Below, one piece after another: positions 4,229 through 26,789 of a DNA stretch of 38,985 nucleotides; positions within the stretch are counted from its first letter, which is position 1, and the number at the start of each line of letters is the position of its first letter. Under the pieces are notes generated by a model. The model ran no database searches. It was not told the DNA's origin and worked only from the letters and a program-made list of their open reading frames with translations. The stretch is from Vulcanimicrobiales bacterium (lineage in GTDB: Bacteria > Vulcanimicrobiota > Vulcanimicrobiia > Vulcanimicrobiales > Vulcanimicrobiaceae). The position numbers and the translations under genes were made by a program. Location of the stretch: the NCBI GenBank assembly GCA_038231455.1, contig JBBRLI010000029.1, positions 1 to 38,985 on the forward strand, written 5' to 3'.

Positions 4229-5103
4229 CCCAAGCGGTCGTCACGAACTTCTGGTCGTGGCAACTTGGTGTCGCACTCGTGCTCAATGCAATCGTCCAGG
4301 CCGTGACGATCGGCGCGTTCGCCGCCCGGATCGCGGGCGTTATCACGCGGCGGATTGCGATTTCGATCTCGCTCTTCAGTCTCTTCGTAACCGCGAGCCG
4401 GTTGGCGAACCTCGTCTATACGCCGCTGCTCGGCGGTATCTCGGATGCCGCGCGCAACGTCGTCGTCCAAGCCGACAAGCTCAACCTGCCTGGCATGGCG
4501 CAGCCGGCGCTCGCGCAGTACGAATGGCAACTGCGCACGATCGTCTTTGCCGGAACGATCGGCACGGTCATCGGCGGGATATTGCTGCCGACGTTCATGT
4601 TTTTGTTCATCCGCGGAATCGGCTCGTTCGAGCGCCTCGACTCGATGCCAAAGGCCCTCTTCCGGCTCTTCGATCCCAAGGTGGTCCGCGATATTGTCGG
4701 TTCGCTGCGCTCGCCGAACCCGACGTCGTGGGGACGGTTCAAGCTCACCCACGTTCCGATGAAGTTGCTCATCGCCAATACCGTGCTGCAGTCGGTCTAC
4801 GCGATCGGCGTTGTCGCCGCCGTCTATGCGGGCGTCCGCGATCCGGTTCACTCGATCGCCGCGACCTTGCTCTCGGGGATCGTAAACGGTATCGGCACGA
4901 TCGCCTTTACGCTCTTTGTCGATCCGACCTCGGCGCAGATCGTCGATCAGGCAACACACGGGAAACGGACGCTCGACGAAGTAAAATCGATGGTATTCTT
5001 CCTCACGCTAACTACGATCGTAGGAACGTTGATCTCGCAGCTGTTCTTGTATCCCGCAGCGCTCCTCATCGGAGCGGTCGCGCGATTGACCTACCATGGG
5101 TGA
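4225..5103 (+). CDS. amj: Lipid II flippase Amj family (DUF2837) membrane protein
   Basis: ARIAGVITRRIAISISLFSLFVTASRLAN and LSGIVNGIGTIAFTLFVDP resemble Amj conserved segments; multiple TM helices. Confidence 0.82.
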   Translation: MTQAVVTNFWSWQLGVALVLNAIVQAVTIGAFAARIAGVITRRIAISISLFSLFVTASRLANLVYTPLLGGISDAARNVVVQADKLNLPGMAQPALAQYEWQLRTIVFAGTIGTVIGGILLPTFMFLFIRGIGSFERLDSMPKALFRLFDPKVVRDIVGSLRSPNPTSWGRFKLTHVPMKLLIANTVLQSVYAIGVVAAVYAGVRDPVHSIAATLLSGIVNGIGTIAFTLFVDPTSAQIVDQATHGKRTLDEVKSMVFFLTLTTIVGTLISQLFLYPAALLIGAVARLTYHG

Positions 5104-8217: not shown

Positions 8218-9746
8218 GCGACCCAGTACCAATTGGCGAAAAGCACCGTATAGAGTCCTAAGAGCGGGAGGGAGAATGATACGATCGCATTGTGCACGGT
8301 CGAGCGTTCGCCCCACAGTGCCATGACGGCGAACATCGGGAAGAGCACGAGCGCGAAGCGCGGCATGCTCATCAGCGAGGCGGTCGACATTGGAATGAGG
8401 ATCGAGAGCGCCATGTAAATCGAGTAGGACGGGCGCAATCGCCGGATGCCGGCGATCAAGATGCCCACCATCAGCAGTGTGAAGCTCAGTTCGAAGAATT
8501 GATTCACAATCGTAACCGCCGAACTCGACGTCGACATGATATGGATGGAATTGTAGAAAGCGACCCACGGCGGGGCGAAGTGGCGACCCCAGTGACTCTG
8601 GACGTGTGAAAACGCGAGTGGGTCGCCGTTGATCACCCAAAGCGCGGCCATGTACGTCAGGAGGCCTAGTGGAATGAGCGCGAGGCCCACGATCGGCCGC
8701 ACGAACGCATCGAGCGGAAACTTACGTACGCCCCACATCAGCGTGATCCACTCGATGAAGAATGGAACGGCAAGTAGGACACCCTCGGAGCGCGTAAGTG
8801 CGGCAAAGTAGCCGATGAGCCCGGCCGTGATCCACTTGCGTTCGCGAATATAGTAGAACGACGCGACAGTGAGCGCGAAAAAGAGCGACTCGGTATACAC
8901 GGCGGAGAAAAAAATCGCCGTTGGAAAGACGGAGGCATAAAACGTCGCGCGTTGCGCCACGTGCCGATTGTATTGATGTTCGACGAGCTTATAAAAGAAA
9001 AGCAAGCCGAAGAAGACAGAGACGTTCGAGATGATCAGACCCGAGACGAGCGGGTTCCCGGTTACTTTGGTCAAGAGCCAAATGAGCGAGGGGAAGAGCG
9101 GGAAGAACGCAGCGTCGGTGCCGTGATAGCCTTGGCGTGCGATCGTGATGTAATGCTCGGCATCCCAGCGGCCCCACACCGCAAGCGCCGGATTCGTCGA
9201 TGCGGCGTAGTGACTGCCCGGACGCGCGCCGATGAGCACGGCAGCGAATTCCGCAATCAAGATGATCGGCACGCGCGTCACGATGAAGGTGATCGCGACA
9301 TCGCGCACGGTCCGGTTGAGCGTCGCGGCGACCGCGAGCTTCACGACCGCAAACGCCGCGATTGCAAGTCCGGTCGTGCGGCCGGTCTGAGCGGCGCCAA
9401 ACGGCCCGACGAACGTCGCCCACGAAAAGACCAGCATGCCCCACGACACCGCGTCATATTTGAGGGCGGTGACCAGTGCGACGTCCGTGCGGCGCGAGAA
9501 ATAGCGCGCGTACCCGACCCACAGTGCAAGCGCCGTCGCAATGCCAAGGGGCAGCGCGGCGAGCAGCGCCGCCTCCATTGCTATCGGCAAACTCGACAGA
9601 CGCCCGAGCGCTGCATACCAGGCAAAGAAACCGGCCGTTAAGCCGGCGAGCACCACGGTAACGAGCGCCGGAACACCGGCGCTCATCAGCAGATCACCAA
9701 GCGCTGGGCGAACGGCAAGGCCGCCGAGCGGCAACGTTCGGTTCAT
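8214..9746 (-). CDS. PIG-V-like (GT76) membrane mannosyltransferase with extra N-terminal TM region
   Basis: WGRWDAEHYITIARQGY, AFFPLFP, FSAVYTESLF, SMPRF. Start ATG 9746 or GTG 9773 (AGGAG 5 nt upstream); the longer ORF-track call is antisense to glpX. Confidence 0.85.
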   Translation of the reverse strand: MNRTLPLGGLAVRPALGDLLMSAGVPALVTVVLAGLTAGFFAWYAALGRLSSLPIAMEAALLAALPLGIATALALWVGYARYFSRRTDVALVTALKYDAVSWGMLVFSWATFVGPFGAAQTGRTTGLAIAAFAVVKLAVAATLNRTVRDVAITFIVTRVPIILIAEFAAVLIGARPGSHYAASTNPALAVWGRWDAEHYITIARQGYHGTDAAFFPLFPSLIWLLTKVTGNPLVSGLIISNVSVFFGLLFFYKLVEHQYNRHVAQRATFYASVFPTAIFFSAVYTESLFFALTVASFYYIRERKWITAGLIGYFAALTRSEGVLLAVPFFIEWITLMWGVRKFPLDAFVRPIVGLALIPLGLLTYMAALWVINGDPLAFSHVQSHWGRHFAPPWVAFYNSIHIMSTSSSAVTIVNQFFELSFTLLMVGILIAGIRRLRPSYSIYMALSILIPMSTASLMSMPRFALVLFPMFAVMALWGERSTVHNAIVSFSLPLLGLYTVLFANWYWVA

Positions 9747-9821
9747 TTCGGCAAATGCGTTCAACCGCCGCACGAGCGCTCCTGGCAGGGCCAACGAGCC
9801 GGAGCAAAAATCAGATTTTTG

Positions 9822-10802
9822 ATGACCTTGACGATGCAAACCGGTACGAGCCCCGTTGATACGCTCGATTTTGTCAAAGTAACGGAGGCCGCGGCACTGG
9901 CAGCTTCGCGTTGGATGGGGCGCGGCGAGCGAAACATCGCCGACGGCGCCGCGGTGGAGCAGATGCGCAACGCGCTCAACGCCATGCCGATCTCCGGCCG
10001 CATCGTTATCGGCGAAGGCGAACGCGATGAAGCCCCGATGCTCTATATCGGTGAAGAACTCGGCCAGGGCGGCTTTGCCGTCGATATCGCCGTCGACCCG
10101 GTCGAAGGCACCAACCTGGTTGCCAACGGCCTCCCAAATTCGATCGCCGTCATGGCGCTTGCGGATCGCGGCGGCCTGCTCCACGCGCCCGACTCCTATA
10201 TGCAGAAGCTGGCGGTCGGGCCCAAAGCCGCTCCGTTCGTGCATTTGGACGCCTCCGTTAAAGACAACCTCGAAGCCGTCGCAAACGCCCTCGATCGGCC
10301 GATCAACGACGTCACCGTCGTGATTCTCGAACGCGACCGTCATAAAGAGCTGATCGCCGAGGTGCGCGAAGCGGGCGCGCGGATCAAACTGATCTCCGAT
10401 GGGGATGTCGATGCCGCGATCGCAACGGCGGTCGATGGGACCGGCATTCACGTGGCGATGGGAACGGGCGGTGCCCCGGAAGGCGTCCTCGCAGCGGCAG
10501 CCCTCAAATGCCTCGGCGGCGGATTTTACGGGCGCCTCAAACCGCGCAGTGCCGAGGAAGCCGAACGTGCGAAGAAGATGGGTTTCGGCGACCTCAACCG
10601 GGTGCTCACGATGGACGATCTCGCCCACGGCGAGAATATCGTCTTCGTGGCCACCGGCATCACCGACGGCGACCTCGTCCGGGGCGTGCGCTTCTACGGC
10701 AACCACGCCAAAACGCACTCGATTCTGATCCACTCCGCAAGCGGAACCGTTCGCTTCATCGAAAGTGTCCATAGACTGGGAGCAAAGCCCAACCGGGCTT
10801 AA
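9822..10802 (+). CDS. glpX: Class II fructose-1,6-bisphosphatase
   Basis: VIGEGERDEAPMLYIGE, DIAVDPVEGT, LISDGDV, GGAPEGV, ATGITDG. Confidence 0.96.
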   Translation: MTLTMQTGTSPVDTLDFVKVTEAAALAASRWMGRGERNIADGAAVEQMRNALNAMPISGRIVIGEGERDEAPMLYIGEELGQGGFAVDIAVDPVEGTNLVANGLPNSIAVMALADRGGLLHAPDSYMQKLAVGPKAAPFVHLDASVKDNLEAVANALDRPINDVTVVILERDRHKELIAEVREAGARIKLISDGDVDAAIATAVDGTGIHVAMGTGGAPEGVLAAAALKCLGGGFYGRLKPRSAEEAERAKKMGFGDLNRVLTMDDLAHGENIVFVATGITDGDLVRGVRFYGNHAKTHSILIHSASGTVRFIESVHRLGAKPNRA

Positions 10803-15955: not shown

Positions 15956-18171
15956 CGACGCCGCTTCCCGTTCGCGCATCGGCGCTTGCCCTTTCGCTTG
16001 CCTTGGTTGCCTGCGGTGGCGGTGGTGGATCGTCCAGTGGGGGCATCGGTGGTCCGCCGACCCCGACACCGACCCCGTTTTCCACGCCGACCCCGGTCTA
16101 CGCTCCGTGTTCGACCGGGAGCGCGTTCACCAAAACGGCGATTTCGACGAGCGGCCCACTGACATTGCCGAACCCGACGAAACTCTCGACCTTCACATTC
16201 AATTCGAATCCAACCGGAATTCCGGTGACGATCACGTTCCCGAACTCGACGGCCACACAGGGACTTGGACCGGCGCCCGTTGCAACGCAGCCGGCGGTCG
16301 CTCACACGGCGTACAACGTTACGTGGAACGGCAGTTCCGCGCCGTTCACCGTAGCGATCGACCAATCGCAAAACGGCGACCATTCGCTGATCTACAATCA
16401 GGCTAGCGACACGAACGGCACGATCAATCTCTCGACGATCGCAAGTGCCGCGCGCAGCACGCAGTCAACGACCGGCACGCGCTCAAAGCGGCCTGAGGAT
16501 CCGGGTCGTCCACTGCAACGCCAGGACGGTCGACCTTCGCTTTCGTCAAGCCGTCTTTTCGTGCGCTACGATACGACGGCCATTCGTGGTGCACACGCGC
16601 GTGTCGTGGCAAGCGAAGAAGCACTCGGGATGTCGGCGGCAACCGATATCGGCGACTTCGGCGGCGTGACCGTTCGTGAAGTGACGATCCCGCAAAGCGA
16701 AACGATTGCGGATGCGACGAACCGACTTCGTGGGCTTGCCGGTGTGAAGAGCGTGGAACGCGTCCACCTACGTTACGCATCGAGTTGCACGGGGCTGACA
16801 GCGAATAACCCGCACTTCCTGCCCGATCAGCAATGGGATATGTATCAAATTGGGGCGCCGAACGCGTGGGGCTATACCAAGGGCGATGCAATCACGATCG
16901 CGATCATCGACACGGGCATCGACAACAATTTGCCCCAACTCACGAGCAAGCTCAAGTTCGAAGAACAAGTCGTCGGCGGCGTCAAGACGACCGGTGGTCA
17001 AGTCGCGCAAGATACCAACGGTCATGGGACCAACGTCGCTGGTATTGCGCTCGCGCAAGTCAATGACGGGCTTGGATTCGCGGGCGTCGGCTACAACGTA
17101 CAACTGCAAGCGTATAAGATTTTTCCGAACGACTCGGCGACGGGCCCGGGCGACCCGCCCGGCGCAGACACCGGTGACGAGGCGACGGCAATTCGCGATG
17201 CGGTCGCAAATGGCGCCGACGTCATCAACTTGAGTCTTGGTTCACAGCAAGACACACGCAACACCGATGGTTCGACGGGCGTCGATATCGTCGAACATGA
17301 TGCGATCGAATATGCGATTTCGCAGGGAGTCGTGGTCGTTGCCGCAGCGGGTAATGAGGGCACGACCGGCGTCTCCAATCTGGACTATCCCGCGAACGAC
17401 GATAACGTGATCTCCGTCGGCGCGACTTCGCTGCGCGATAACAATACCGGGATCCCGTCCCCAGCGAACGTCGAGTACGTCACGTCGTACTCGAATGCCG
17501 CGCCCAATCTCAGCGTTGTCGCTCCGGGCGGCGATCCGACCAGTGGCAATGATTCCGACTATCTCCACTGGATCTTCAACCTCTCGACGACGACCGCGAC
17601 GAATCCGATCAATAAGTGCAAGAACAACGCGGACTGCAAAGCGCTCTTCGCCGGAACCTCACAGGCAACGCCGCATGTATCGGGCACGATCGCCCTCATG
17701 CTCGCCGCGGCGGGCGGACGCAAGTCGCTCACGGTCGGTCAGATCACGCAACTGATCCAGTCGACCGCCGACAACATTAACGATCCAAAACAAGGTCACG
17801 GACGCATCAACGCCTACCGCGCGATTGCAGCGGCTGCCGGAGACACGCAGCCGCCCGCGTACGTGCCCAACGCAAATCAGTTCGTTGCATTCGCGTACAC
17901 GAATTCCGGCGGCGCTGCGCCGACGGTTGTGAATTTGGACTATCCGCGTGGCGTTCCGGTGACCTCGAACGGACTCTTCCGGGTCGCCGATGTGCCGCCG
18001 TCGATCGGCAGCTTCAAGATCGGCGTCTGGTACGACAGCAACGGCGACGGTACGATCGACGGCGGAGACTTATTCGGTTCCGTTCAGACGACGTGCAGTT
18101 CGCAAGCGAACGTCTGCGGTTCCCCGCAGATCAACGTCGCTCGCGTCGGCTCGGGCTTTACGCTTCCGTAG
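15952..18171 (+). CDS. S8 subtilisin-family serine peptidase, lipoprotein
   Basis: Lipobox LVAC, PT-rich linker, catalytic IIDTG / HGTNVAG / GTSQATP, oxyanion AAAGN, C-terminal DSNGDG motif. Confidence 0.93.
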   Translation: MTTPLPVRASALALSLALVACGGGGGSSSGGIGGPPTPTPTPFSTPTPVYAPCSTGSAFTKTAISTSGPLTLPNPTKLSTFTFNSNPTGIPVTITFPNSTATQGLGPAPVATQPAVAHTAYNVTWNGSSAPFTVAIDQSQNGDHSLIYNQASDTNGTINLSTIASAARSTQSTTGTRSKRPEDPGRPLQRQDGRPSLSSSRLFVRYDTTAIRGAHARVVASEEALGMSAATDIGDFGGVTVREVTIPQSETIADATNRLRGLAGVKSVERVHLRYASSCTGLTANNPHFLPDQQWDMYQIGAPNAWGYTKGDAITIAIIDTGIDNNLPQLTSKLKFEEQVVGGVKTTGGQVAQDTNGHGTNVAGIALAQVNDGLGFAGVGYNVQLQAYKIFPNDSATGPGDPPGADTGDEATAIRDAVANGADVINLSLGSQQDTRNTDGSTGVDIVEHDAIEYAISQGVVVVAAAGNEGTTGVSNLDYPANDDNVISVGATSLRDNNTGIPSPANVEYVTSYSNAAPNLSVVAPGGDPTSGNDSDYLHWIFNLSTTTATNPINKCKNNADCKALFAGTSQATPHVSGTIALMLAAAGGRKSLTVGQITQLIQSTADNINDPKQGHGRINAYRAIAAAAGDTQPPAYVPNANQFVAFAYTNSGGAAPTVVNLDYPRGVPVTSNGLFRVADVPPSIGSFKIGVWYDSNGDGTIDGGDLFGSVQTTCSSQANVCGSPQINVARVGSGFTLP

Positions 18172-19189
18172 CGTAGCCAATCGCCGTCAGCACGCGCATG
18201 GTCTCGAGCGATTCCGCGAAGCTCGGGACCGTGCTCTGCTTCGTCTCGATCTCGACGGCAAAGTCATCGAGTAACTCGAGGAACATCGGGATGTTGCCGT
18301 GGACGGGTTCGTAGCGCGCGTAGGTCGGCTCGACGACTTCGAGTTCGCTCTGTTCGTCGGGTTCGAGTAAGAAGAGACGCGATTCGATGAGGGTCTCGCC
18401 GTTGCCGATCGCCGCGCGCTGATCGCCGTGGACGCCCACGGTCGATGAACTGATGAGCATGGTGCCATCGACGCTTACGCGCGCGATGAGACCCTCGCCG
18501 TAGTCGATGAGCGCAAACGCACCGTCGTCGACCGTGCTTGTGAAGACGCCCTGCGCGTCACGGCGCGTCGGAATCGCGGTACGGATTCCGCCGGTGACGC
18601 GCAAGGGTTTGCGCCCCGCAAGCCATGATGCCGTATCGATGAGGTGCGAGCCGATTGCGCCCGCGATGCCGCCGCCGCGTTCGCGTTCGAACCACCAGCC
18701 GCGCGGTCGTTCGACCTCGGAGCCAAGCCACGTCGCAAACGCCGTCACTTCGATTTGCCGCAGCGTCCCGAGGTGACCGTTGACGATGAGTTCCTTGATC
18801 GCGCGCCGCACGGGGTTGTAGCGGAATTCGTGCGCGACGGCCGTCGCCGTTCCGGCGATCTTCGCGGCGGCGACCATCTCTTCGGCTTGCGCGACGGTGA
18901 GTGCGAAGGGCTTTTCGCAGAGGACGTGCTTGCCAAAGGCAAACGCCGCGATCGTCTGCTGGTGGTGGGCGAAGGGCGGTGAGGCGATCGAGACCACGTC
19001 GATGTCAACGCTTGCGAGCATCGCTTCGAGCGAGTTGAACGCATGCGGAATATCGCGTTGCTTTGCGACCTCGGCGGCATTTGTCGGCGATGCGATCGCG
19101 ACGACGTCAAATTTCGGATGGAGTTTATAGGCCGGAACGTGGACGTTTCCGCCAAAACTGCTGCCGACGACACCGACACGGTAGGTCAT
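18158..19189 (-). CDS. Gfo/Idh/MocA family oxidoreductase
   Basis: N-terminal Rossmann strand, HVLCEKPFA, EFRY, GGG...IGSHLID. Confidence 0.92.
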   Translation of the reverse strand: MTYRVGVVGSSFGGNVHVPAYKLHPKFDVVAIASPTNAAEVAKQRDIPHAFNSLEAMLASVDIDVVSIASPPFAHHQQTIAAFAFGKHVLCEKPFALTVAQAEEMVAAAKIAGTATAVAHEFRYNPVRRAIKELIVNGHLGTLRQIEVTAFATWLGSEVERPRGWWFERERGGGIAGAIGSHLIDTASWLAGRKPLRVTGGIRTAIPTRRDAQGVFTSTVDDGAFALIDYGEGLIARVSVDGTMLISSSTVGVHGDQRAAIGNGETLIESRLFLLEPDEQSELEVVEPTYARYEPVHGNIPMFLELLDDFAVEIETKQSTVPSFAESLETMRVLTAIGYATEA

Positions 19190-20490
19190 CGTTTTACGGC
19201 CTCGACAATGTTCTCGATGATGCCGATCGCGCGTTCGAGCTGGCTCTGTTCGATCGTGAGCGGCGGGGCGATCGTAATCGACGATCCCGTCGGTCCCGAC
19301 TGAAGCAAAATGACCCCACGGCGCAGAGCCTTCTTAACGAGCATCGTTGCAATCGCCGGATCGGTACATTCGATGGCCCACATGTATCCAATCCCGCGAA
19401 TATCGCGAATGCATGCGTTGTATTTGCGCAACCGAAAGAGACGCCCAGCGAGCAACTGCGCGCGGCCGCGTACCGTGCTGACGAGGTTCAGTCGCTGGAT
19501 CTCATCGATGTTTGCAAGCGCCGCCGCACACGCGAGCGGGTTGCCGAGATACGTTGAGGTATGCAGTGCTTCGCCGCTCGAGATGTCCCAGGCGTCCATT
19601 ACCTCCGCGCGGCCGATCGTCGCGGAAAGCGGGACGCCGCCTGCGATCGCCTTGCCAAGACACATGAGGTCCGGCACGACGCCGTCGAGATCGCAGGCGA
19701 ACATCGCGCCCGTCCGGCCAAAGCCCGTGTAGATCTCATCGAGGATCATGACGATCTTGGCTTTGTCGCAGATCGCTCGCACGCCGGCAAGAAATCCCGG
19801 CGGCGGGATGATGATGCCGCCGCGGCCTTGGATCGGCTCGAGAATGATCGCGCCGATCTGCGGATCCCGCGCGAGTGCGTCGCTTATTGCGAGCAGGGCC
19901 GCCGGCGTACCGCTCGCAGCGCTCGGATACGGCAGCCACGTCGTGCCGGTCGTGACCAGCGGCGAAAACGGTTCGCGAAATTTGGAGATACCCGTGACGG
20001 AAAGCGCGCCGAGCGAGAGGCCATGATACGCGTTCTCATACGCGAGAACATGCGGCTTCTTGGTCTTGAGAAACGCCGTTTTCAGGGCGAATTCGACCGC
20101 TTCGGCACCGGTCGAACACAAGAACGTTTTCTCGAGACCCGCGGGTGTGATCGCAGCGAGTTTCTCGAGCAGCTGGACGCGAACTTCGGTTGGATGCACG
20201 TCGCCCATGCCGTGCATGAGCCGGAGCGCTTGATCGGCGACGGCAGCGGCGACGTAGCGATTCGTATGCCCGGTATTCGCGACGCCGAAGGCGGAGGTCA
20301 AGTCGATATAACGGTTATTGTCGACATCCGTGACGAGCGCGCCGCTCGCCGATTGCCAAAACACGGGAAAGTCACTAGCAAGATAGGTCACGCCGCGAGA
20401 TTCGAAACGTGCAAGGGATGCCGCAAGTTCAAGCGAGCGCGGCCCGGGGATCGGCCCGCGAATCGCCTCGAAGAGTTCGTTTTCGTTCAT
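19186..20490 (-). CDS. Class III PLP aminotransferase (GabT/ArgD-like omega-aminotransferase)
   Basis: DVDNNRYID, TGAEAVEFALK, EPIQGRGG, DEIYTGFGRTG, GKAIAGG, STYLGNP; ATG 20490 in an ATGA overlap. Confidence 0.92.
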   Translation of the reverse strand: MNENELFEAIRGPIPGPRSLELAASLARFESRGVTYLASDFPVFWQSASGALVTDVDNNRYIDLTSAFGVANTGHTNRYVAAAVADQALRLMHGMGDVHPTEVRVQLLEKLAAITPAGLEKTFLCSTGAEAVEFALKTAFLKTKKPHVLAYENAYHGLSLGALSVTGISKFREPFSPLVTTGTTWLPYPSAASGTPAALLAISDALARDPQIGAIILEPIQGRGGIIIPPPGFLAGVRAICDKAKIVMILDEIYTGFGRTGAMFACDLDGVVPDLMCLGKAIAGGVPLSATIGRAEVMDAWDISSGEALHTSTYLGNPLACAAALANIDEIQRLNLVSTVRGRAQLLAGRLFRLRKYNACIRDIRGIGYMWAIECTDPAIATMLVKKALRRGVILLQSGPTGSSITIAPPLTIEQSQLERAIGIIENIVEAVKR

Positions 20491-21734
20491 CGTTCCACAT
20501 CGATCCAGCGGATGAAGGGCATGATGCAAGGCTCGCCGCCATGATGGGCGCCTGCCGGTGGCGATTGCATTTCTCCGAATCGTGTGATTCGAACTGCACC
20601 GCCCGCTCGTGCAACCTCACCGAGTGCCAAGTAATGATCGGTGTCGGCAAGTGCGAGAGCCTCGAGCGGGAGACGGTGCGCACGTAGATAGTCGGCCGCT
20701 TCGTCCGCAGACGTGACCGGAAAGATCGGCACGATGCGCGCGGCCAGCGGCGGCGGTGAATCGCGCGGCGGGTCGACGATGAGCGATGCTTGCGCGGTGG
20801 GTGCCGTGATCAGCGTGCCCGCTCCGGATGCCGCACGAAATGCGGCGAGATCGCGAGCGGCGGCATGCGAGGCGGCACTTCCGGCGGCGAGCCGTCCCGG
20901 TGGGAATTCAATTGCAGCACGGTCGAGCGCACCAGCCAGGATCCGCGCGAAAGCCGTCGCTTCAGCGCCTTCCGATTCGACGAAGAGCACGTGCAGCGAC
21001 ATGCAACCCGAACCGTCATAAAGCAGTGCGTCGCGCGCGATGCGCTCGGCAAGCGCCATCGTGTCACCCGAAAGATCGGAACGTCGAATGTATCCGGCGC
21101 TCGCGCGATGACCGAACGCGACGATGCGCGTTGCCGTGCTTGCGCCGAGCCGGACAGCCTCGATCGTTGCATCGCTCCCAAAGACGACGATCGTCTGTGC
21201 GGATGCGAAGAGTCTGGCTTCGCGCGGATCGTTGCCGCCATGCCAAATTTCCGCATGAGCAGCGTCGGCGAATGCCGGCTCTTCCTCGATCAGCGTTTCG
21301 AAGAACGCGCCGATCAAGCCGTCGTCGCGATCTTTGACGACGACACGGCACTTAGCGATGAGCGCGTAGATCGCGGGGACGAGTGCGACCCCGATCGTGG
21401 TGTCGCTGCCGACGATGACCGCGGTGTCGACGCCGCGTGCATGGACGCGCATTCCATATCGTTCGACGGGGCCGTCGAGTGCCGCAAGCGAGCCGACTTC
21501 GGCTTCGACCGCCGTGTGCAGCGCACGCACTTGCAGCGATCCGAAGAGCCGGTCTAGCGCGTACTCGATGACCGGGATCGCGAAGCCGGTGCGTGCCTCA
21601 ATTGCCGCCTGGGCGCGCACGCGCGGCGGAAAGTCCGCGTCATGCCAACGTTCTGCGGCGTCGGCGATCGCGCGCACGATCGCATGCGCGCTCCGTTCGC
21701 GGAGCGCGTTAACGGCGGGCAAGGTCTTCGGCAT
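20487..21734 (-). CDS. LuxC-like acyl-CoA/acyl-protein reductase
   Basis: WHGG, VVFGSDATIEAVR, FGHRAS, ARDALLYDGSGCMS (catalytic Cys position), RITRFGEM, HHGG. Confidence 0.82.
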   Translation of the reverse strand: MPKTLPAVNALRERSAHAIVRAIADAAERWHDADFPPRVRAQAAIEARTGFAIPVIEYALDRLFGSLQVRALHTAVEAEVGSLAALDGPVERYGMRVHARGVDTAVIVGSDTTIGVALVPAIYALIAKCRVVVKDRDDGLIGAFFETLIEEEPAFADAAHAEIWHGGNDPREARLFASAQTIVVFGSDATIEAVRLGASTATRIVAFGHRASAGYIRRSDLSGDTMALAERIARDALLYDGSGCMSLHVLFVESEGAEATAFARILAGALDRAAIEFPPGRLAAGSAASHAAARDLAAFRAASGAGTLITAPTAQASLIVDPPRDSPPPLAARIVPIFPVTSADEAADYLRAHRLPLEALALADTDHYLALGEVARAGGAVRITRFGEMQSPPAGAHHGGEPCIMPFIRWIDVER

Positions 21735-22788
21735 CGAGCGAACAGCCGCGCAACTCGGCGCCGACGTCACGTCCGAGCAAGACGATGCCATCGCCACTGG
21801 CGTAGCCCAGGTCTTCGGTTTCGATCGCGATCACCGAACTGCGATTCGCGCAGTCGATGTGTCGGAGCGCGCCAATGACGCCCGGCGGACATTCGTTCCC
21901 ATCGATGTCGACGACGATCGGGCGAAGCCATGGCGGAGCGATCTTGACACGCCGGTCGGCGCTTCGGCTCCCGGCAGAATCGTAATACTGACTGCAGAGT
22001 TCGGTCATGCCGTATTCGGCAACGATCGATGATTCGGGAAGTCCGAGCCGCTGCGAAATCGCGGTGTAGAGATCGCTGCGTTCCACGACGCGGGAGCGGC
22101 CTTTGAAGCCGCCCGTCTCCATGATGCGCGAACCGGCTGGCAACGTAAATCGGCGTTCGCCCGCTGCAAGGCCATCGAGCAACGCGACGAATGCGAATGC
22201 CGTCGCAGCGATACACACCGGGACGCCCGCATCGCACGCGCTGGCAAGGTCCCGCATGAATCGATCAAGATCGAGTCCGTCATCATGCAGAAACCAGCCC
22301 GTGCGACCGTCGCCGAAGCGTTTGCTGACGGCCGCCATCATGAAGCCCAGTGACGAGGTCGGCTTCTCACGCGGGTCGGGAACGAGCAAAAGATACCGCA
22401 GGGCAGCGCCGTCGGCGAGCATCGCGCGCTCAAAACCCGCTAGCAGCGATGCCGTATAGAGTTCGGTCGTCGCAAGATAGTGGCGTCCGCTCGTACCGAC
22501 GGTCGTTCCACTCGTCTCGAACATCGCCGCGGCACGCGCGACATCAAACGTTGCAAGCGCAGCCTCTTTGAACGCCGCAGCTGGGACGGCCGGAATATCG
22601 ATCGGACGCCGCGGAAGATGGCCCGCATCGTAGCCTTTGCTCCGCGCGTACGCCGCGTATGGTTCGTTGTAGCGGATTTGGTAGGCGAAAAGGTCGCGCG
22701 CAAGCGCATCGAAGTCGAGTGTTTTCGGCGCCTGGATCGCGGCGAGAATCCGCGCGTCGAGTACCGCGGCCTCTTCCGGTTCGCTCAT
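21709..22788 (-). CDS. LuxE-like acyl-protein synthetase
   Basis: LFAYQ..N..Y, IPAVP..AFK, FETSGTT, ETGGFKGR, EYGMTEL, IETEDLG, LLGR...ELRGCS (C-terminal acyl-acceptor Cys). Confidence 0.85.
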   Translation of the reverse strand: MSEPEEAAVLDARILAAIQAPKTLDFDALARDLFAYQIRYNEPYAAYARSKGYDAGHLPRRPIDIPAVPAAAFKEAALATFDVARAAAMFETSGTTVGTSGRHYLATTELYTASLLAGFERAMLADGAALRYLLLVPDPREKPTSSLGFMMAAVSKRFGDGRTGWFLHDDGLDLDRFMRDLASACDAGVPVCIAATAFAFVALLDGLAAGERRFTLPAGSRIMETGGFKGRSRVVERSDLYTAISQRLGLPESSIVAEYGMTELCSQYYDSAGSRSADRRVKIAPPWLRPIVVDIDGNECPPGVIGALRHIDCANRSSVIAIETEDLGYASGDGIVLLGRDVGAELRGCSLDAEDLARR

Positions 22789-22824
22789 CGAGGATGCATC
22801 AAATCGCGCGTGCACACGATCGCC

Positions 22825-23304
22825 TCAGCGACCGCGCCGCCGTGCGGTGATCAGTCCGGTGTTGAGTCCGGCGATGGCGAGGCCGCCGTCAAAACGCGCG
22901 GATTCGACTTTGAGACAGCGGTCGACCACGACATCGAGCCCGGCTTCATCGGCCAGGCGAATCGCTTCCTCATTGATGACGCCGTACTGAAACCAAATCG
23001 CCTTCGCACCAACGTCGATTGCTTCGCGTGCGACCGATGGAGCGTCGGCGGGTTTGCGGAAGACATCGACGATATCGGGTGCGCCGTGGACGGCGGCATA
23101 TGCCGCGAGCGTCGGATACGACCTCACGCCGTCGATCTCGGCGACCATCGGATTGATCGGGACGATCGTGAGTTTGCCTTTAGTGCGCAGATACGAGAAC
23201 ACAAAGTAGCTCGGGCGGGTGGGATTCGGTGAGGCTCCGACCATCGCAACGGTTTTCGAGCGGTCGAGGAGATCGCGGCGGTCAGCCACGGTATCGAGAA
23301 TCAA
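22825..23304 (-). CDS. CoA-binding protein (YccU-like)
   Basis: VAMVGASPNPTRPSY, PINP, DIVDVFR, WFQYGV, VVDRCLKVE; TTG 23304 with GGAG SD. Confidence 0.92.
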   Translation of the reverse strand: MILDTVADRRDLLDRSKTVAMVGASPNPTRPSYFVFSYLRTKGKLTIVPINPMVAEIDGVRSYPTLAAYAAVHGAPDIVDVFRKPADAPSVAREAIDVGAKAIWFQYGVINEEAIRLADEAGLDVVVDRCLKVESARFDGGLAIAGLNTGLITARRRGR

Positions 23305-23305
23305 G

Positions 23306-24622
23306 CTAGTCTCCGTGCGATCCGGCCAGGACGTGTTTTGCCGATGCAACGAGCGCGCGGTCGAGATCCCAGATCAAATCTTCGACGTCTTCGGTGCCGA
23401 CCGAGAGTCGAATGAGATCGGGCGTTACGCCCGAGGCACTCATCTCCGCATCGCTCAACTGTTGGTGTGTGGTCGAAGCGGGGTGGATCACCAAACTCTT
23501 CGAGTCGCCGACGTTGGCAAGATGGCTCCAGAGTTCGAGCGATTCGATGAACGTGCGTCCCGCCTCGCGTCCGCCACGCAGACCGAAGGAAAAGATCGAG
23601 CCCGCGCCATCCGGCAAATACGTGCCGGCCAGCGTGTGATACGGCGAATCGTCGAGTTCCGCATACGAAACCCATGCGACTTCGTCGCGCGATTTGAGGA
23701 ACCGGGAAATTGCGCGTGCGTTCTCGACATGCGCCTTCATGCGCAGCGCAAGCGTTTCCAATCCCTGAATGAACATGAACGCGTTCATTGGTGAGAGGCA
23801 TGCCCCAACGTCGCGCATCACTTCGACGCGCGCGCGCATCAAGAACGCGTACTCGCCGAACGTCTCGAAGAAATTCATGTCGTGGTAGCCGGGGCTCGGC
23901 GTTGACAGGAGCGGATGTTTGCCGGCGCCCCACGGGAAGGTGCCCGATTCCACGATGATTCCGCCAATCGCGGTGCCGTGTCCGCTGATAAACTTCGTTG
24001 CGGATTGAATGACGATATCGGCGCCGTGTTCGATCGGACGGCAGAGTGCCGGCGATGCAAACGTGTTGTCGACGATGAGCGGCAACCCGTGCGTGTGTGC
24101 GACGGCCGCGATTGCGGCGAGGTCCGCAACGTTTCCGGTCGGATTCCCAATCGTCTCGGTGTAGATCGCTTTCGTATTGGGCTGGATCGCCGCTGCGAGT
24201 GCCGCCGCTTCACCTCCCGGAACGAACGTCACATCGATTCCCATCCGTTTGAGGGTCACGCCGAACTGCGTGATCGTTCCGCCGTAGAGATTTGCACTCG
24301 CGACGAGATGATCGCCGTTCTGCGCGATGGCAAGAATGGCGATGAGCTGCGCGGCAAGACCGCTCGCCGTCGCAACGCCGCCAAGCCCGCCTTCGAGGCT
24401 CGCCATCTTTTCTTCGAACGCGGCGACCGTCGGATTCCCGATGCGCGAATAGATATTCCCGTACGTCCGAAGCGCGAAGAGTTCGGCGGCGTGTTCGGTC
24501 GAGTCGAACACGAAGCTCGAGGTCAGGTAGATCGGCTGCGCGCGGGCGCCGGTCTCGGGGTCAGGCGGGGTGCCGGCGTGCAGGGCACGCGTACGAAAGC
24601 CGAAGCGCCGATCCTCGGGCAT
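23306..24622 (-). CDS. metY: O-acetylhomoserine sulfhydrylase (Cys/Met metabolism PLP enzyme)
   Basis: IYSRIGNPT, LYGGT, VDNTFASP, SATKFISGHG, HLANVGDSKSLVIHPASTTHQQL, IRLSVG. Confidence 0.92.
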   Translation of the reverse strand: MPEDRRFGFRTRALHAGTPPDPETGARAQPIYLTSSFVFDSTEHAAELFALRTYGNIYSRIGNPTVAAFEEKMASLEGGLGGVATASGLAAQLIAILAIAQNGDHLVASANLYGGTITQFGVTLKRMGIDVTFVPGGEAAALAAAIQPNTKAIYTETIGNPTGNVADLAAIAAVAHTHGLPLIVDNTFASPALCRPIEHGADIVIQSATKFISGHGTAIGGIIVESGTFPWGAGKHPLLSTPSPGYHDMNFFETFGEYAFLMRARVEVMRDVGACLSPMNAFMFIQGLETLALRMKAHVENARAISRFLKSRDEVAWVSYAELDDSPYHTLAGTYLPDGAGSIFSFGLRGGREAGRTFIESLELWSHLANVGDSKSLVIHPASTTHQQLSDAEMSASGVTPDLIRLSVGTEDVEDLIWDLDRALVASAKHVLAGSHGD

Positions 24623-25242
24623 TACTGGCCGATCTTTTCTTTCTTCCGGTGCGAGGCGGTAAAAGGCGTCCCCGCTTTGCCGCCGTCATCGATCAGGCCG
24701 ACCATGTCGCCGAAATTTTCCGCGTATCCGGTGAAGATCGTGTCCTTGGGTTTGGTCGCGACGACCAGTTTGAAGATGCGTCCATCGAAGGTCCCCGTGT
24801 AGGGGACTTTCGCTTGGCCCGGGCGGTCCCACGTGCCGCTGACGTTCGCACCGTCCTGTTTGACCGTCAGGTGCTGGTAGACCGTGCGCGTGCCGTCGAG
24901 CGGCTGGATCTGGACTTCCCAGACGCCATCGAGTGAGGCGAATTGGGGCGGTTCCGGGGTATCGGTGGGGCTCGCCTCAGGCGCCGGCTTCGCTTTTTTG
25001 CCGCCTTTGCCGGCGGGCGTGGGCTGCAAGGTCGGCTGAACGGACGGCACGCTTGCCGCGGGAGTGGTGGCCGGCGTCGGCGTCCCGGTGGTCGTTGGTG
25101 TGCCGGTCCCCGAGGTCGCGACGGGGTTCGGGCGCGGCGGTGGCGGCGGGGTCGGGTTGGCCTGGGAAAAGGCAACCTGGCGCATGCCGGTGAGGAGCGA
25201 AAGGGCGAAAACGAGTCCGAAACCGAGCCGGGCGAATTTCAA
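24622..25242 (-). CDS. Secreted hypothetical protein, Pro/Thr-rich linker plus small beta-rich domain
   Basis: TTG 25242 with GGAG 8 nt upstream; signal peptide ending AFSQ; LDGVWEV..LTVKQDGANVSGTW; stop overlaps the metY start. Confidence 0.75.
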   Translation of the reverse strand: MKFARLGFGLVFALSLLTGMRQVAFSQANPTPPPPPRPNPVATSGTGTPTTTGTPTPATTPAASVPSVQPTLQPTPAGKGGKKAKPAPEASPTDTPEPPQFASLDGVWEVQIQPLDGTRTVYQHLTVKQDGANVSGTWDRPGQAKVPYTGTFDGRIFKLVVATKPKDTIFTGYAENFGDMVGLIDDGGKAGTPFTASHRKKEKIGQ

Positions 25243-25331
25243 GAAAGCAACTCCAAAGCGGGGGTACGCTGTTATAACTGTGGCGGAGCCGCATACGTTA
25301 CAGCGCCCGCCCCGAGGGCCCTTGCCACGGG

Positions 25332-25340
25332 TGATATGAT
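25332..25340 (+). promoter_or_regulatory. Possible extended -10 element (TGaTATGAT) for rpmE
   Basis: TGn-TATGAT ending 9 nt before the GTG start. Confidence 0.4.
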
Positions 25341-25349
25341 AGGACCGCT

Positions 25350-25619
25350 GTGAAAGACAAGATCCACCCCAAATGGTACCCCGAAGCCTCAGTCGCGTGC
25401 GGCTGTGGTGCAACCTTTACGACCGGCTCGACGCTGCCCAAAATCACCGTCGAAGTCTGCTCGCAATGCCACCCGCTCTACACGGGTCAGCAAAAGTTCC
25501 TCGACACCGCCGGCCGCGTTGAGAAATTCAACCAGCGCGTCGTCCTTGCCGAGAAGAAGAAAGCCGAAGCGGACGCCCGGAAGGTTAAAAAAGACGAGGC
25601 CGCTGCCGCCGCACTTTAG
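25350..25619 (+). CDS. rpmE: 50S ribosomal protein L31, Zn-binding (C+) type
   Basis: [29 protein letters not shown]; upstream of prfA-prmC. Confidence 0.97.
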
Positions 25620-25638
25620 CGGTCCAGTCGTGTTCCGG

Positions 25639-25667
25639 AAGCGAGTCGCGCGAGCGGCTCGCTTTTT
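25639..25667 (+). terminator. Intrinsic terminator/attenuator after rpmE
   Basis: AAGCGAGTCGC-GCGA-GCGGCTCGCTT stem with GNRA loop running into a T tract. Confidence 0.8.
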
Positions 25668-25703
25668 CGTTCTTTCGCTCCATCATCGCCGAAGAAGACC
25701 ATC

Positions 25704-26789
25704 ATGCTGCTGACCGATCGTCTCGAAACGCTCTCGAAAAAATTCGACGAGCTCGACGCTGCCCTCGCGAACCCGAGCGGCGCGTTCGATCAAGAGCGTT
25801 TTACCTCGATCGTCAAAGAACGCTCGGCGATCGAACCGACGGTGCTTGCCTTCCGCAGCTATAAAAAACTGCTTGCCGACATGGCGGCCAACGACGCGCT
25901 GCTCGAAGAACGCGGCGACGCCGAGATGCACGCGATGGCCGAAGATGAAGCAAAAGAACTGCGCGCGCGCAAGAAAGCGATCGAAGAAGAGCTGCAGGAG
26001 CTGATGCTCCCGCGCGACCCCAACGACTCGAAGGACATCTTTATCGAAATCCGCGCGGGTGCAGGCGGCGATGAAGCCAGCCTCTTCGCAGCGGAAATCG
26101 GTCGCATGTACGGCCGTTTTGCCGAATCGAAGAAGATGAAAATCGAGGTTCTCTCGCAGAGCGAGTCGGAGGCCGGCGGTTCGAAAGAACTCGTGCTCTC
26201 CGTGCGCGGCGGCGAACCGTACCGCTTCTTCAAATATGAGTCCGGCGTGCACCGGGTGCAACGCGTGCCGCTCACCGAGACGCAAGGCCGCGTGCACACG
26301 AGTACGGCTACGGTCGCCGTTTTGCCCGAAGTCGAAGATACGGGCGAGGTGCAGATCAACGCCAAAGACCTGCAAGTCGATACGTTCAAAGCCTCCGGCG
26401 CCGGCGGTCAGCACGTCAATAAAACTGAATCCGCAATTCGGATCACGCACGTTCCCTCCGGGATCATCGTCTCGTGCAGTGAAGAGCGTTCGCAGATACA
26501 GAATCGTGAACGGGCGATGGGCATGCTTCGCGCGCAGCTCGCCGACCGCCAGCGCCGTGAAGCCGAAGAAGCCGTCGGATCATTGCGCAAGAGCCAAGTT
26601 GGGACGGGCGATCGCAGCGAGAAAATCCGCACGTATAATTTCCCGCAAGACCGCATCACTGACCATCGCATCAATCAGAACTATCAAAATATCAAGACGA
26701 TCCTCGAAGGCGATATGGACCGGCTCGTCGCCGATCTGCAACGCGATGAGAAGGCCCGTTTGCTCGCCGGAGAAGAGCCAGCCGCATGA
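25704..26789 (+). CDS. prfA: Peptide chain release factor 1
   Basis: PxT (VPLT) specificity motif, GAGGQHVN, RSEKIRTYNFPQ. Confidence 0.98.
   Translation: MLLTDRLETLSKKFDELDAALANPSGAFDQERFTSIVKERSAIEPTVLAFRSYKKLLADMAANDALLEERGDAEMHAMAEDEAKELRARKKAIEEELQELMLPRDPNDSKDIFIEIRAGAGGDEASLFAAEIGRMYGRFAESKKMKIEVLSQSESEAGGSKELVLSVRGGEPYRFFKYESGVHRVQRVPLTETQGRVHTSTATVAVLPEVEDTGEVQINAKDLQVDTFKASGAGGQHVNKTESAIRITHVPSGIIVSCSEERSQIQNRERAMGMLRAQLADRQRREAEEAVGSLRKSQVGTGDRSEKIRTYNFPQDRITDHRINQNYQNIKTILEGDMDRLVADLQRDEKARLLAGEEPAA

Follow-up and report, generated by a model that had tools for sequence, protein, structure and literature searches.

What does a LuxE/LuxC-type acid reductase do in a bacterium with no detected luciferase gene, when its genes overlap that of an aminotransferase? 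The question is raised by four overlapping minus-strand genes (18158-22788), recognised from the open reading frame (ORF) listing and the sequence, which encode a LuxE-like protein, a LuxC-like protein, a class III aminotransferase and a Gfo/Idh/MocA oxidoreductase on contig JBBRLI010000029.1 of a Vulcanimicrobiales bacterium (assembly GCA_038231455.1). The window that we analysed is this whole contig (38,985 bp), part of a metagenome-assembled genome (MAG) of 3.71 Mb in 106 contigs that is 93.7% complete and belongs to the Vulcanimicrobiota (Eremiobacterota). We consider it fairly probable, judging from the comparisons below, that the first three proteins form a three-step module replacing QueC and QueF in queuosine biosynthesis, taking 7-carboxy-7-deazaguanine (CDG) through 7-formyl-7-deazaguanine to 7-aminomethyl-7-deazaguanine (preQ1). 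The proposal is built on observations established here, namely the genes and their catalytic residues, their co-conservation, a gap in the queuosine pathway of the genome, and linkage to que genes in other phyla.

Catalytic residues of the three core proteins

The LuxE-like protein matches the Pfam LuxE family (PF04443) with 43.7 bits (cut-off 24.9) and scores 28.1 bits against NCBIfam NF052244 (long-chain-fatty-acid--protein ligase LuxE), for which the equivalog cut-off is 550; on these scores it is classified as a member of the LuxE superfamily and not as an equivalog of LuxE from luminous bacteria. When a profile of 12 members of the class was compared with the PDB, the only match was 7xc6_E, LuxE of Photobacterium phosphoreum (E 1.3e-31, residues 39-369). 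In the cryo-EM account of that complex (PMC9157457), Lys238 and Arg355 of LuxE are given as the adenylation/thioesterification pair, and Cys364, within TRxxKGCxLS, as the acyl carrier. The profile alignment places K229, R340 and C349 of the LuxE-like protein on these three residues, and all three are invariant in the 12 class sequences. The protein carries TSGTT at residue 92, EYGMTE at 258, and RGCS with Cys349 as residue 349 of 359, and it is predicted to adenylate a carboxylate and then to carry the acyl group itself, on the C-terminal Cys349. The family is large: among 1.84 billion representative proteins, its profile matched 4585 at E<=1e-3 and 1693 representative clusters at E<=1e-30, and most of the 150 best representatives have (R/K)GCS towards the C-terminal end of the LuxE-like domain.

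The LuxC-like protein gave a similar result, with 117.3 bits for Pfam LuxC (PF05893; cut-off 21) and 19.2 bits for NCBIfam NF052251 (equivalog cut-off 750). It keeps the DGSGC motif, in which Cys244 is the predicted catalytic residue, and a 12-member profile matches LuxC in the PDB (7xc6_A, E 5.4e-31) with GC(L/M)S aligned to the active-site cysteine; G243, C244 and S246 are invariant in all 12 sequences. The corresponding Cys296 of LuxC (P. phosphoreum numbering) is described as the active-site acyl acceptor (PMC9157457). Since the Lux catalytic residues are matched by K229, R340 and C349 in the LuxE-like protein and by C244 in its LuxC-like partner, all of them invariant in the class, the LuxE-to-LuxC hand-over of the acyl group is very probably kept in this pair. 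Each of the two genes is present as a single copy in the window's genome.

The alignment to LuxC stops at chain position 436 of 477, leaving about 13 further residues in the window protein and 41 in LuxC. According to the same structural account (PMC9157457), the LuxC segment P460-P488 reaches in from the neighbouring subunit and closes the L-shaped hydrophobic cleft (more than 40 Å) in which the C14 chain is held. This segment is absent from the LuxC-like protein in the profile alignment, which argues against a long-chain substrate, without proving the point. The LuxC-LuxE fatty acid reductase (PDB 7XC6; PMC9157457, reviewed in PMC12041015) and the proteins studied here are thus alike, as far as these sources describe the former, as two-protein systems of an ANL-type synthetase and an ALDH-fold reductase, with near full-length profile matches, the Lys/Arg pair, a C-terminal acyl-accepting cysteine in (R/K)GCS and a single essential cysteine in the reductase. 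The module in the window differs in its scores far under the equivalog cut-offs, in a LuxC-like protein about 28 C-terminal residues shorter, the cleft segment included, in its coupled aminotransferase, in the lack of luxA/B, and in its predicted substrate, a deazapurine carboxylate where the Lux system uses myristate.

The window contains neither luxA nor luxB; luxD was outside the search. Across the 3.71 Mb genome, the sole match to the Bac_luciferase family lies on another contig and is an MsnO8-family luciferase-like monooxygenase (LLM) oxidoreductase (372.7 bits; cut-off 166.95), whose score with the luciferase-alpha model is 31.6 bits (cut-off 600). The genome-wide absence of luxAB that the sequence-only reading of this DNA had asked to be confirmed is therefore what the genome shows, the only family member being of the MsnO8 type.

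The aminotransferase matches Pfam Aminotran_3 (PF00202) with 354.6 bits, and all 25 of its best NCBIfam models remain under their cut-offs, GabT (TIGR00700) with 302.5 bits for 506.65 and argD (TIGR00707) with 281.1 bits for 410.05. Its closest solved relatives are the putrescine aminotransferase of Escherichia coli (263.7 bits) and then mycobacterial GabT. A quick maximum-likelihood tree of 47 rows, with support from the Shimodaira-Hasegawa-like approximate likelihood-ratio test (SH-aLRT) only, was made from the window protein, copies from 13 of the 25 class loci with an aminotransferase (picked for spread), the five aminotransferase paralogues of the window's genome, one of which lies beside argC, and every out-of-phylum match of at least 330 residues from 67 loci. 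The lysine expected to bind pyridoxal 5'-phosphate (PLP), K280, is conserved throughout the 47 rows. One clade of 37 rows (SH-aLRT 99) contains the window protein, all copies linked to the module in Eremiobacterota, queE-adjacent copies of Verrucomicrobiota (L236, L238), and linked copies from Myxococcota, Spirochaetota, Chlamydiota, Planctomycetota and others, and all five paralogues fall outside it.

Three positions mark this clade, represented in the window protein by L158, R223 and Y254. After a conserved HG, all 37 clade rows have Leu, Val or Met and the ArgD paralogue of the same genome has Arg; at the variable position of EPIQG-x-GG, Arg occupies all 37 rows and Glu, Ala or Asn the other ten; at the third position, 35 of the 37 have Tyr or Phe, and Gln (DEVQTG) occurs in five of the ten others, including the paralogues on contigs C20 and C11. 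On the model of GabT and ornithine aminotransferase (OAT) structures, these positions may line the substrate site, and the post-HG position presumably binds the substrate carboxylate in GabT, OAT and acetylornithine aminotransferase. The enzyme is predicted to aminate an aldehyde, as a member of a distinct clade linked to LuxE-like and LuxC-like genes. Where the sequence-only reading had allowed for an aminotransferase that was not co-conserved with luxE/luxC homologues or that grouped with ordinary GabT/ArgD, we found co-conservation, a clade of its own and no equivalog cut-off reached. A second, separate clade of linked aminotransferases was also seen, in L173, L176, L199 and L211 (Nitrospirota, Armatimonadota, Eisenbacteria and one unclassified MAG), with HGDT and QGEGG where the main clade has HGL and QGRGG.

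The module and the queuosine pathway across genomes

Queuosine is a near-universal tRNA wobble modification; on its pathway, CDG is the product of QueE, and QueA acts on preQ1-tRNA. As outlined in PMC11130926, the de novo pathway requires QueD, QueE, QueC and QueF. The window's genome encodes QueD (TIGR03367, 94.3 bits; cut-off 89.25), whose gene is overlapped by a QueE-like radical-SAM gene with five best NCBIfam matches that are all QueE models (111.9 bits). Tgt (508.6 bits), QueA (401 bits) and QueG (327.8 bits; cut-off 200) are encoded as well, and QueH was not found in this genome. Searches of the 93.7% complete genome gave no match for QueF and, for QueC, nothing but PP-loop noise from unrelated genes (at most 32.4 bits); QueC and QueF are probably absent. 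With QueD, the QueE-like protein, Tgt, QueA and QueG present and QueC and QueF not found, the step from CDG to preQ1 is therefore unfilled, and the organism seems, from its gene content, able to make CDG and to use preQ1 without the two known enzymes between them. No member of the preQ0/preQ1 transporter family Vut_1 (YhhQ) was found in the window's genome, a search that did not extend to QueT/QrtT and the newer salvage transporters.

The same gap recurs in related genomes. The phylum sample comprised 201 genomes, including the window's family (f1, 113 genomes), the second family of its order (f2, 3) and the sister order (f3, 15); f1 to f3 together with the window's own genome make a set of 132, the sampled members of the window's class, and the other set holds 69. 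A LuxC-like match was found in 165 of the 201 genomes, with 113/113 in f1, 3/3 in f2 and 15/15 in f3, that is, in all 132 genomes of the first set and in 33 of the other 69. QueD-like genes (E<=1e-10) were detected in the same proportion in the first set (132/132) and in 32 of the 69. QueC over cut-off was found in none of the 132 and in 29 of the 69, and QueF in none of the 132 and in 13 of the 69; the best QueC-like scores among the 132 were 83.5, 75.2 and 71.3 bits, in three genomes, for a cut-off of 150.3. In the set of 69, 27 of the 32 genomes with a QueD match carry QueC over cut-off (tabulated by hand). Inside the phylum, the module and QueC/QueF thus form a clean complementary pattern. 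The tallies of LuxC-like, QueC and QueD include two genomes flagged as unpublished (G177 and G128), and that of Gfo, given below, includes G177; no conclusion rests on them.

Two minor observations concern the que genes of this sample. In four f3 genomes (G134, G041, G185 and G165), a QueD-like gene lies about 17-20 kb from the LuxC-like gene on the same contig, which may be loose conserved synteny. In 17 of the 29 genomes with QueC over cut-off, for example G072, G062, G035 and five of the six sampled f13 genomes, no QueF match was found; in these genomes outside f1 to f3, QueF may have escaped detection, or else preQ0 serves another purpose or is made use of by a different route.

Mapping of the window's proteins onto 32 phylum loci showed how stable the gene arrangement is. 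LuxE-like, LuxC-like and aminotransferase genes stand together in 18 of the 20 loci of f1 and f2, with about 1.4 kb between the LuxE-like and LuxC-like genes in three of the 18, and all five f3 loci have LuxE-LuxC-aminotransferase without the Gfo gene. Since the arrangement recurs in this way in 18 of 20 same-order loci and 5 of 5 sister-order loci, it is not due to chance, and the neighbourhood conservation called for beforehand is confirmed. Two loci of genus g4 hold LuxC-aminotransferase only; in five g4 genomes the LuxE-like gene is found elsewhere, in two loci beside the CoA-binding and metY genes that flank the module in the window. In seven loci of other classes (L056, L057 and L062-L066), the LuxC-like match lies within ORFs of 879-959 aa, and the two that were scanned are fusions of LuxC with a PaaK-like AMP-binding domain (Pfam LuxC 308.8 and 290.6 bits) with no aminotransferase nearby. 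These fusions, whose LuxC domain scores much higher than the window protein, belong to a different subfamily from the window's genes.

In L041, an opposite-strand DUF1565 gene (9249-10520, plus strand, 423 aa) occupies the space between the LuxE-like and LuxC-like genes, and a gap of this size is also present in L044 and in L046. In L053 (G198), the LuxE-like, LuxC-like and aminotransferase genes each match in at least two frame-shifted pieces, which suggests assembly errors or a decaying copy.

Beyond the phylum, the reach of the locus scans depended on the query. A single LuxC-like sequence retrieved two close relatives only, the class alignment A1 almost only Eremiobacterota, and smaller alignments reached other phyla, giving two sets of records (67 and 80, 147 in all, with a few contigs in both). 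The carriers belong to Gemmatimonadota, Verrucomicrobiota, Myxococcota, Nitrospirota, Methylomirabilota, Chloroflexota, Sumerlaeota, Planctomycetota, Spirochaetota, Armatimonadota, Chlamydiota and others. In the first set, 49 of 67 records have a LuxC-like gene no more than 1.5 kb from the LuxE-like one, and 26 of 67 have an aminotransferase within 2.6 kb, mostly upstream, in the order aminotransferase-LuxE-LuxC. We then searched the whole genomes behind 40 out-of-phylum LuxE-like loci. QueA was present in 39 of these and a QueD-like gene also in 39 (18 over cut-off), QueC over cut-off in two and QueF in two; ProA, taken as a comparison gene, was present in 26. In many phyla, then, the carriers of LuxE-like genes appear, from gene content, to modify tRNA with queuosine-pathway enzymes while QueC and QueF are almost always missing.

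Some of these loci connect the module to que genes directly. Adjacency was searched by tblastn with the QueD, QueE, QueA and Tgt of the window's genome, and for the second set additionally with two QueE and one QueD of Verrucomicrobiota. The module has a que neighbour in 5 records of the first set of 67 and in 17 of the second set of 80 (20 Verrucomicrobiota, one Methylomirabilota and one unclassified). The arrangements include contiguous queE-aminotransferase-luxE-luxC (for example L251 and L259), luxE-luxC-queD (L170, L231 and L238), queE-luxE-luxC (L267, Methylomirabilota) and queE-luxE-luxC-aminotransferase (L292). Five of the six neighbouring QueE ORFs that were tested exceed the TIGR04349 cut-off of 300 (303.1-315.9 bits), the sixth, in L238, scoring 272.7, and all five QueD ORFs tested exceed their NCBIfam cut-off. 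A Pfam scan of 109 of 219 selected ORFs from out-of-phylum flanks gave one que-related match (PTPS, in L170). Loci of the Myxococcota type have the context UDG-aminotransferase-LuxE-LuxC-Rrf2.

A proposed route from CDG to preQ1 and its alternatives

We infer the substrate, cofactors, amino donor and product of the module as follows. The LuxE-like protein would adenylate CDG, the product of QueE, and bind it as a thioester on the C-terminal Cys349. Its flexible tail would then pass the acyl group to Cys244 of the LuxC-like protein, where reduction with NAD(P)H would release 7-formyl-7-deazaguanine, and the class III aminotransferase, using PLP and an amino donor (probably glutamate), would convert this aldehyde to preQ1. 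Tgt, QueA and QueG, encoded elsewhere in the genome, would finish queuosine on the tRNA. An acid-to-aldehyde-to-amine module offers just the chemistry that would turn -COOH into -CH2NH2 across the gap between CDG and preQ1. This acid-to-aldehyde-to-amine logic had been put forward by the sequence-only reading, and the retained catalytic residues and the co-conservation of the aminotransferase with luxE/luxC homologues support it. Triads of the same logic are known in ArgB/ArgC/ArgD and LysZ/LysY/LysJ, which combine carboxylate activation, reduction and a class III aminotransferase. The module in the window would differ from both by activating through adenylation and a protein thioester, not an acyl phosphate, and by a reductase of the ALDH/LuxC fold, and the genome keeps a separate argC and argD paralogue.

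7-Formyl-7-deazaguanine is a known compound, reported as being released by QueF variants (PMC13740343). In the canonical route, as outlined in PMC11130926 and PMC13740343, QueC converts CDG to the nitrile 7-cyano-7-deazaguanine (preQ0) and QueF reduces preQ0 to preQ1. The proposed route would have the same start and end and the same partners upstream (QueD and QueE) and downstream (Tgt, QueA and QueG), but it would use unrelated enzymes and no nitrile intermediate, in carriers that mostly lack QueC and QueF, and its nitrogen would come by transamination, whereas the canonical nitrogen comes from ammonia via an amide and a nitrile. In full-text literature, a body from which subscription journals are mostly missing, we found no paper tying LuxE/LuxC-type enzymes or an aminotransferase to preQ1 synthesis.

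Several observations weigh against this proposal. In the window itself no que gene is adjacent, and the QueD and QueE-like genes lie on another contig, the latter with a product under every QueE cut-off. Salvage of preQ1 is possible, Vut_1 being the one transporter family searched. The swap of QueC/QueF for the module inside the phylum is a single evolutionary event, and the 132 genomes are not independent. Outside the phylum, adjacency to que genes is limited to 22 of 147 records, 20 of them from one phylum; 4 of the 40 carrier genomes hold QueC or QueF together with the module (different genomes for the two), and these carriers are MAGs of unstated completeness. No preQ1 riboswitch was found at Rfam gathering thresholds in the window or in 29 related loci. 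Finally, the Gfo gene is translationally coupled, yet the proposed chemistry has no step for it.

These points bear on four alternatives. The first is that the module turns some other small, non-fatty acid into an amine, such as a polyamine, an osmolyte or a cofactor precursor, while preQ0 or preQ1 is salvaged through an unrecognised transporter. The lack of a que neighbour in the window and in 125 of the 147 out-of-phylum records would fit this, as would the similarity of the aminotransferase to the E. coli putrescine aminotransferase (263.7 bits) and the restriction of the transporter search to one family. We nevertheless regard it as unlikely: retaining the CDG-making QueD and QueE would be pointless under preQ1 salvage, the LuxE-like family accompanies the absence of QueC and QueF in many phyla, and the family shares operons with queE or queD in two or more phyla as well as in an unclassified MAG.

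It is also conceivable, though improbable, that the module acts on another carboxylate of the pathway, for example 6-carboxy-tetrahydropterin, the product of QueD, or that it yields a 7-deazaguanine derivative other than preQ1. The product of QueD does bear a carboxyl group, and in several Verrucomicrobiota loci it is queD, not queE, that directly follows luxC. Under this alternative, the gap between CDG and preQ1 would stay unfilled, yet the genomes keep QueA, and in 17 of 80 loci queE is the immediate neighbour.

The sequence-only reading had expected a fatty amine, an omega-amino metabolite or an unusual lipid as the product, and nothing found here points there. That the locus encodes a non-luminous fatty-acid reductase and a transaminase giving a fatty amine or unusual lipid, and that the Gfo enzyme contributes a redox step, seems highly improbable. 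The homology to LuxE and LuxC of the fatty-acid reductase speaks for it, and reductase-plus-transaminase routes to alkylamines do exist: in tambjamine biosynthesis (TamH; TabE acyl-ACP reductase), as presented in the preprint bioRxiv 10.1101/2025.08.11.669332, a LuxC-related thioester reductase likewise feeds a transaminase to give a primary amine. That route, in the same account, handles fatty acyl chains bound to acyl carrier protein (ACP) or CoA within a secondary-metabolite cluster, whereas the module studied here has a LuxE-type self-acylating partner, no carrier protein and class-wide conservation. The scores lie far under the NCBIfam equivalog cut-offs (LuxE 28.1 for 550, LuxC 19.2 for 750), the LuxC-like protein has no counterpart of the P460-P488 segment that, as described in PMC9157457, closes the C14 cleft of more than 40 Å, the 16 window ORFs scanned include no acyl-carrier, thioesterase or lipid genes, and the Gfo gene is dispensable. 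Conservation as a single-copy module throughout the class is unlike a variable secondary-metabolite cluster, and the queuosine-directed context and the presence/absence pattern run counter to a lipid product as well.

Replacement of ProB/ProA by the module, which would then convert glutamate to glutamate-5-semialdehyde and use its aminotransferase as an ornithine aminotransferase to supply proline or ornithine, is scarcely credible. ProA was indeed not found in the window's genome or in nearly all of its relatives (present in 4/113 f1, 0/3 f2 and 0/15 f3), but a LuxC-like protein is encoded even in the four f1 genomes that have ProA, and the three of their loci examined (G045, G105 and G130) hold the whole module; 19 genomes from ten other families of the phylum have neither a ProA match nor the separate module (several with the fused LuxC only), and ProA occurs in 26 of the 40 out-of-phylum carriers; ProA absence is thus not specific to module carriers, which makes such a replacement unlikely, and Leu, Val or Met stands in all 37 clade rows where the ArgD paralogue has Arg, in a genome that has argC and an adjacent argD paralogue. 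The arginine route shows no gap for the module to fill and is intact (argC and the adjacent argD paralogue).

Returning to preQ1 synthesis as the function that we favour, we lean towards a broader view, a shade less firmly held, in which a nitrile-free, QueC/QueF-independent preQ1 route through CDG, LuxE/LuxC thioester reduction and a dedicated aminotransferase would be normal in much of uncultured bacterial diversity, in lineages including Eremiobacterota, Verrucomicrobiota, Gemmatimonadota, Myxococcota and Methylomirabilota, with Gfo enzymes recruited twice independently for a fourth function. If so, many genomes scored as queuosine salvagers or as incomplete would be de novo producers. If the module makes preQ1, the textbook pathway has a widespread non-orthologous alternative, calls of salvage dependence for genomes without QueC and QueF are wrong in several phyla, and LuxE/LuxC-type reductases, known for supplying the fatty aldehyde of luciferase, gain a housekeeping role on a nucleobase. 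The conversion of a heteroaromatic acid to an aminomethyl group would then be compact, at a cost of one ATP, one NAD(P)H and one amino donor.

The Gfo/Idh/MocA gene and other features of the locus

The Gfo/Idh/MocA protein matches PF01408, the N-terminal NAD(P)-binding Rossmann domain (95.4 bits), and the C-terminal domain models PF22725 (70.1 bits) and PF02894 (44.2 bits); its best NCBIfam equivalog score is 100.5 bits for a cut-off of 650, and no equivalog model fits. At E<=1e-45 the protein has a match in 102 of 113 f1 genomes, in none of the three f2 genomes and in 5 of 15 f3 genomes, where the copies are unlinked. The 11 f1 genomes without a match all belong to g4 (11 of its 44 genomes), which keeps the other three genes; the sister order likewise keeps these three, with no linked Gfo copy seen, and the f2 gene at the Gfo position is, in a quick tree with SH-aLRT support only, a divergent orthologue of the window's gene. 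Because of this distribution and the divergent f2 orthologue, the Gfo gene is an order-level accessory, dispensable and outside the core of the module, and the further redox step that the sequence-only reading had assigned to it falls away as a core function. One guess at its role is that it returns over-reduced alcohol to the aldehyde. In six Verrucomicrobiota loci (L236, at 3398-4399, L246, L247, L248, L252 and L276), a Gfo/Idh/MocA gene stands directly upstream of queE-aminotransferase-luxE-luxC. Orthology of these queE-flanking genes to the window's Gfo gene was rejected, as they form a clade of their own in the tree; they may be a second independent recruitment from the superfamily, or a coincidence.

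The coordinates of the four genes and of two upstream neighbours are collected in Table 1.

Table 1. Genes of the module, its accessory gene and the upstream neighbours in the window
Feature	Position	Strand	Remarks
LuxE-like acid-activating enzyme, ANL superfamily, 359 aa	21709..22788	-	ATG start; in-frame GTG at 22815
LuxC-like thioester reductase, ALDH superfamily, 415 aa	20487..21734	-	ATG start; in-frame GTGs at 21770 and 21797
Class III (omega) aminotransferase, 434 aa	19186..20490	-	ATG start; mechanical ORF opens at TTG 20529
Gfo/Idh/MocA NAD(P)-dependent oxidoreductase, 343 aa	18158..19189	-	Accessory
CoA_binding_2 protein, upstream neighbour	22825..23349	-	Pfam CoA_binding_2 128 bits; stop 36 nt ahead of the LuxE-like start
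MetY, O-acetylhomoserine sulfhydrylase, upstream neighbour	23306..24622	-	NCBIfam TIGR01326 610.9 bits (cut-off 495.1); context only

The LuxC-like stop and the aminotransferase start share an ATGA at 20487-20490, the aminotransferase stop and the Gfo start share another at 19186-19189, and, with ATG 21734 as the LuxC-like start, the LuxE-like and LuxC-like genes have 26 nt in common. Coordinates and Pfam matches thus bear out the four overlapping minus-strand genes, with ATGA at the last two junctions, that had been described from the sequence, all four Pfam families (LuxE, LuxC, Aminotran_3 and GFO_IDH_MocA) were matched in the search proposed as a check, and the motifs claimed then (TSGTT, EYGMTE and the C-terminal GCS cysteine in the LuxE-like protein, DGSGC in the LuxC-like protein) are all present.

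The CoA_binding_2 gene adjoins metY and the LuxE-like gene in most f1 loci, but L037, L051, L052 and the f3 loci lack it; it is probably context, outside the module. A consensus scan of 17900-25800 for promoters and terminators gave nothing above shuffled controls, and Rfam at gathering thresholds gave no match in the window. In the 29 related loci, the Rfam matches were a thiamine pyrophosphate (TPP) riboswitch in L196 and two tRNAs in L168; the former (24-137, 66.1 bits), on a Methylomirabilota contig, lies ahead of a gene for a zinc-type alcohol dehydrogenase, which is itself upstream of the LuxE-like gene. Downstream of the module, a plus-strand subtilase gene (Peptidase_S8, 739 aa) ends at 18171, converging on the 3' end of the Gfo gene (18158) with a 14-nt overlap, so that there is no intergenic space for a terminator. 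Two further minus-strand ORFs, of 263 aa (24622-25413) and 255 aa (25683-26450), have no Pfam or NCBIfam match. The 255-aa ORF overlaps the release factor 1 (RF1) gene on the opposite strand and may be spurious, and the C-terminal part of the 263-aa ORF is conserved beside metY in related genomes.

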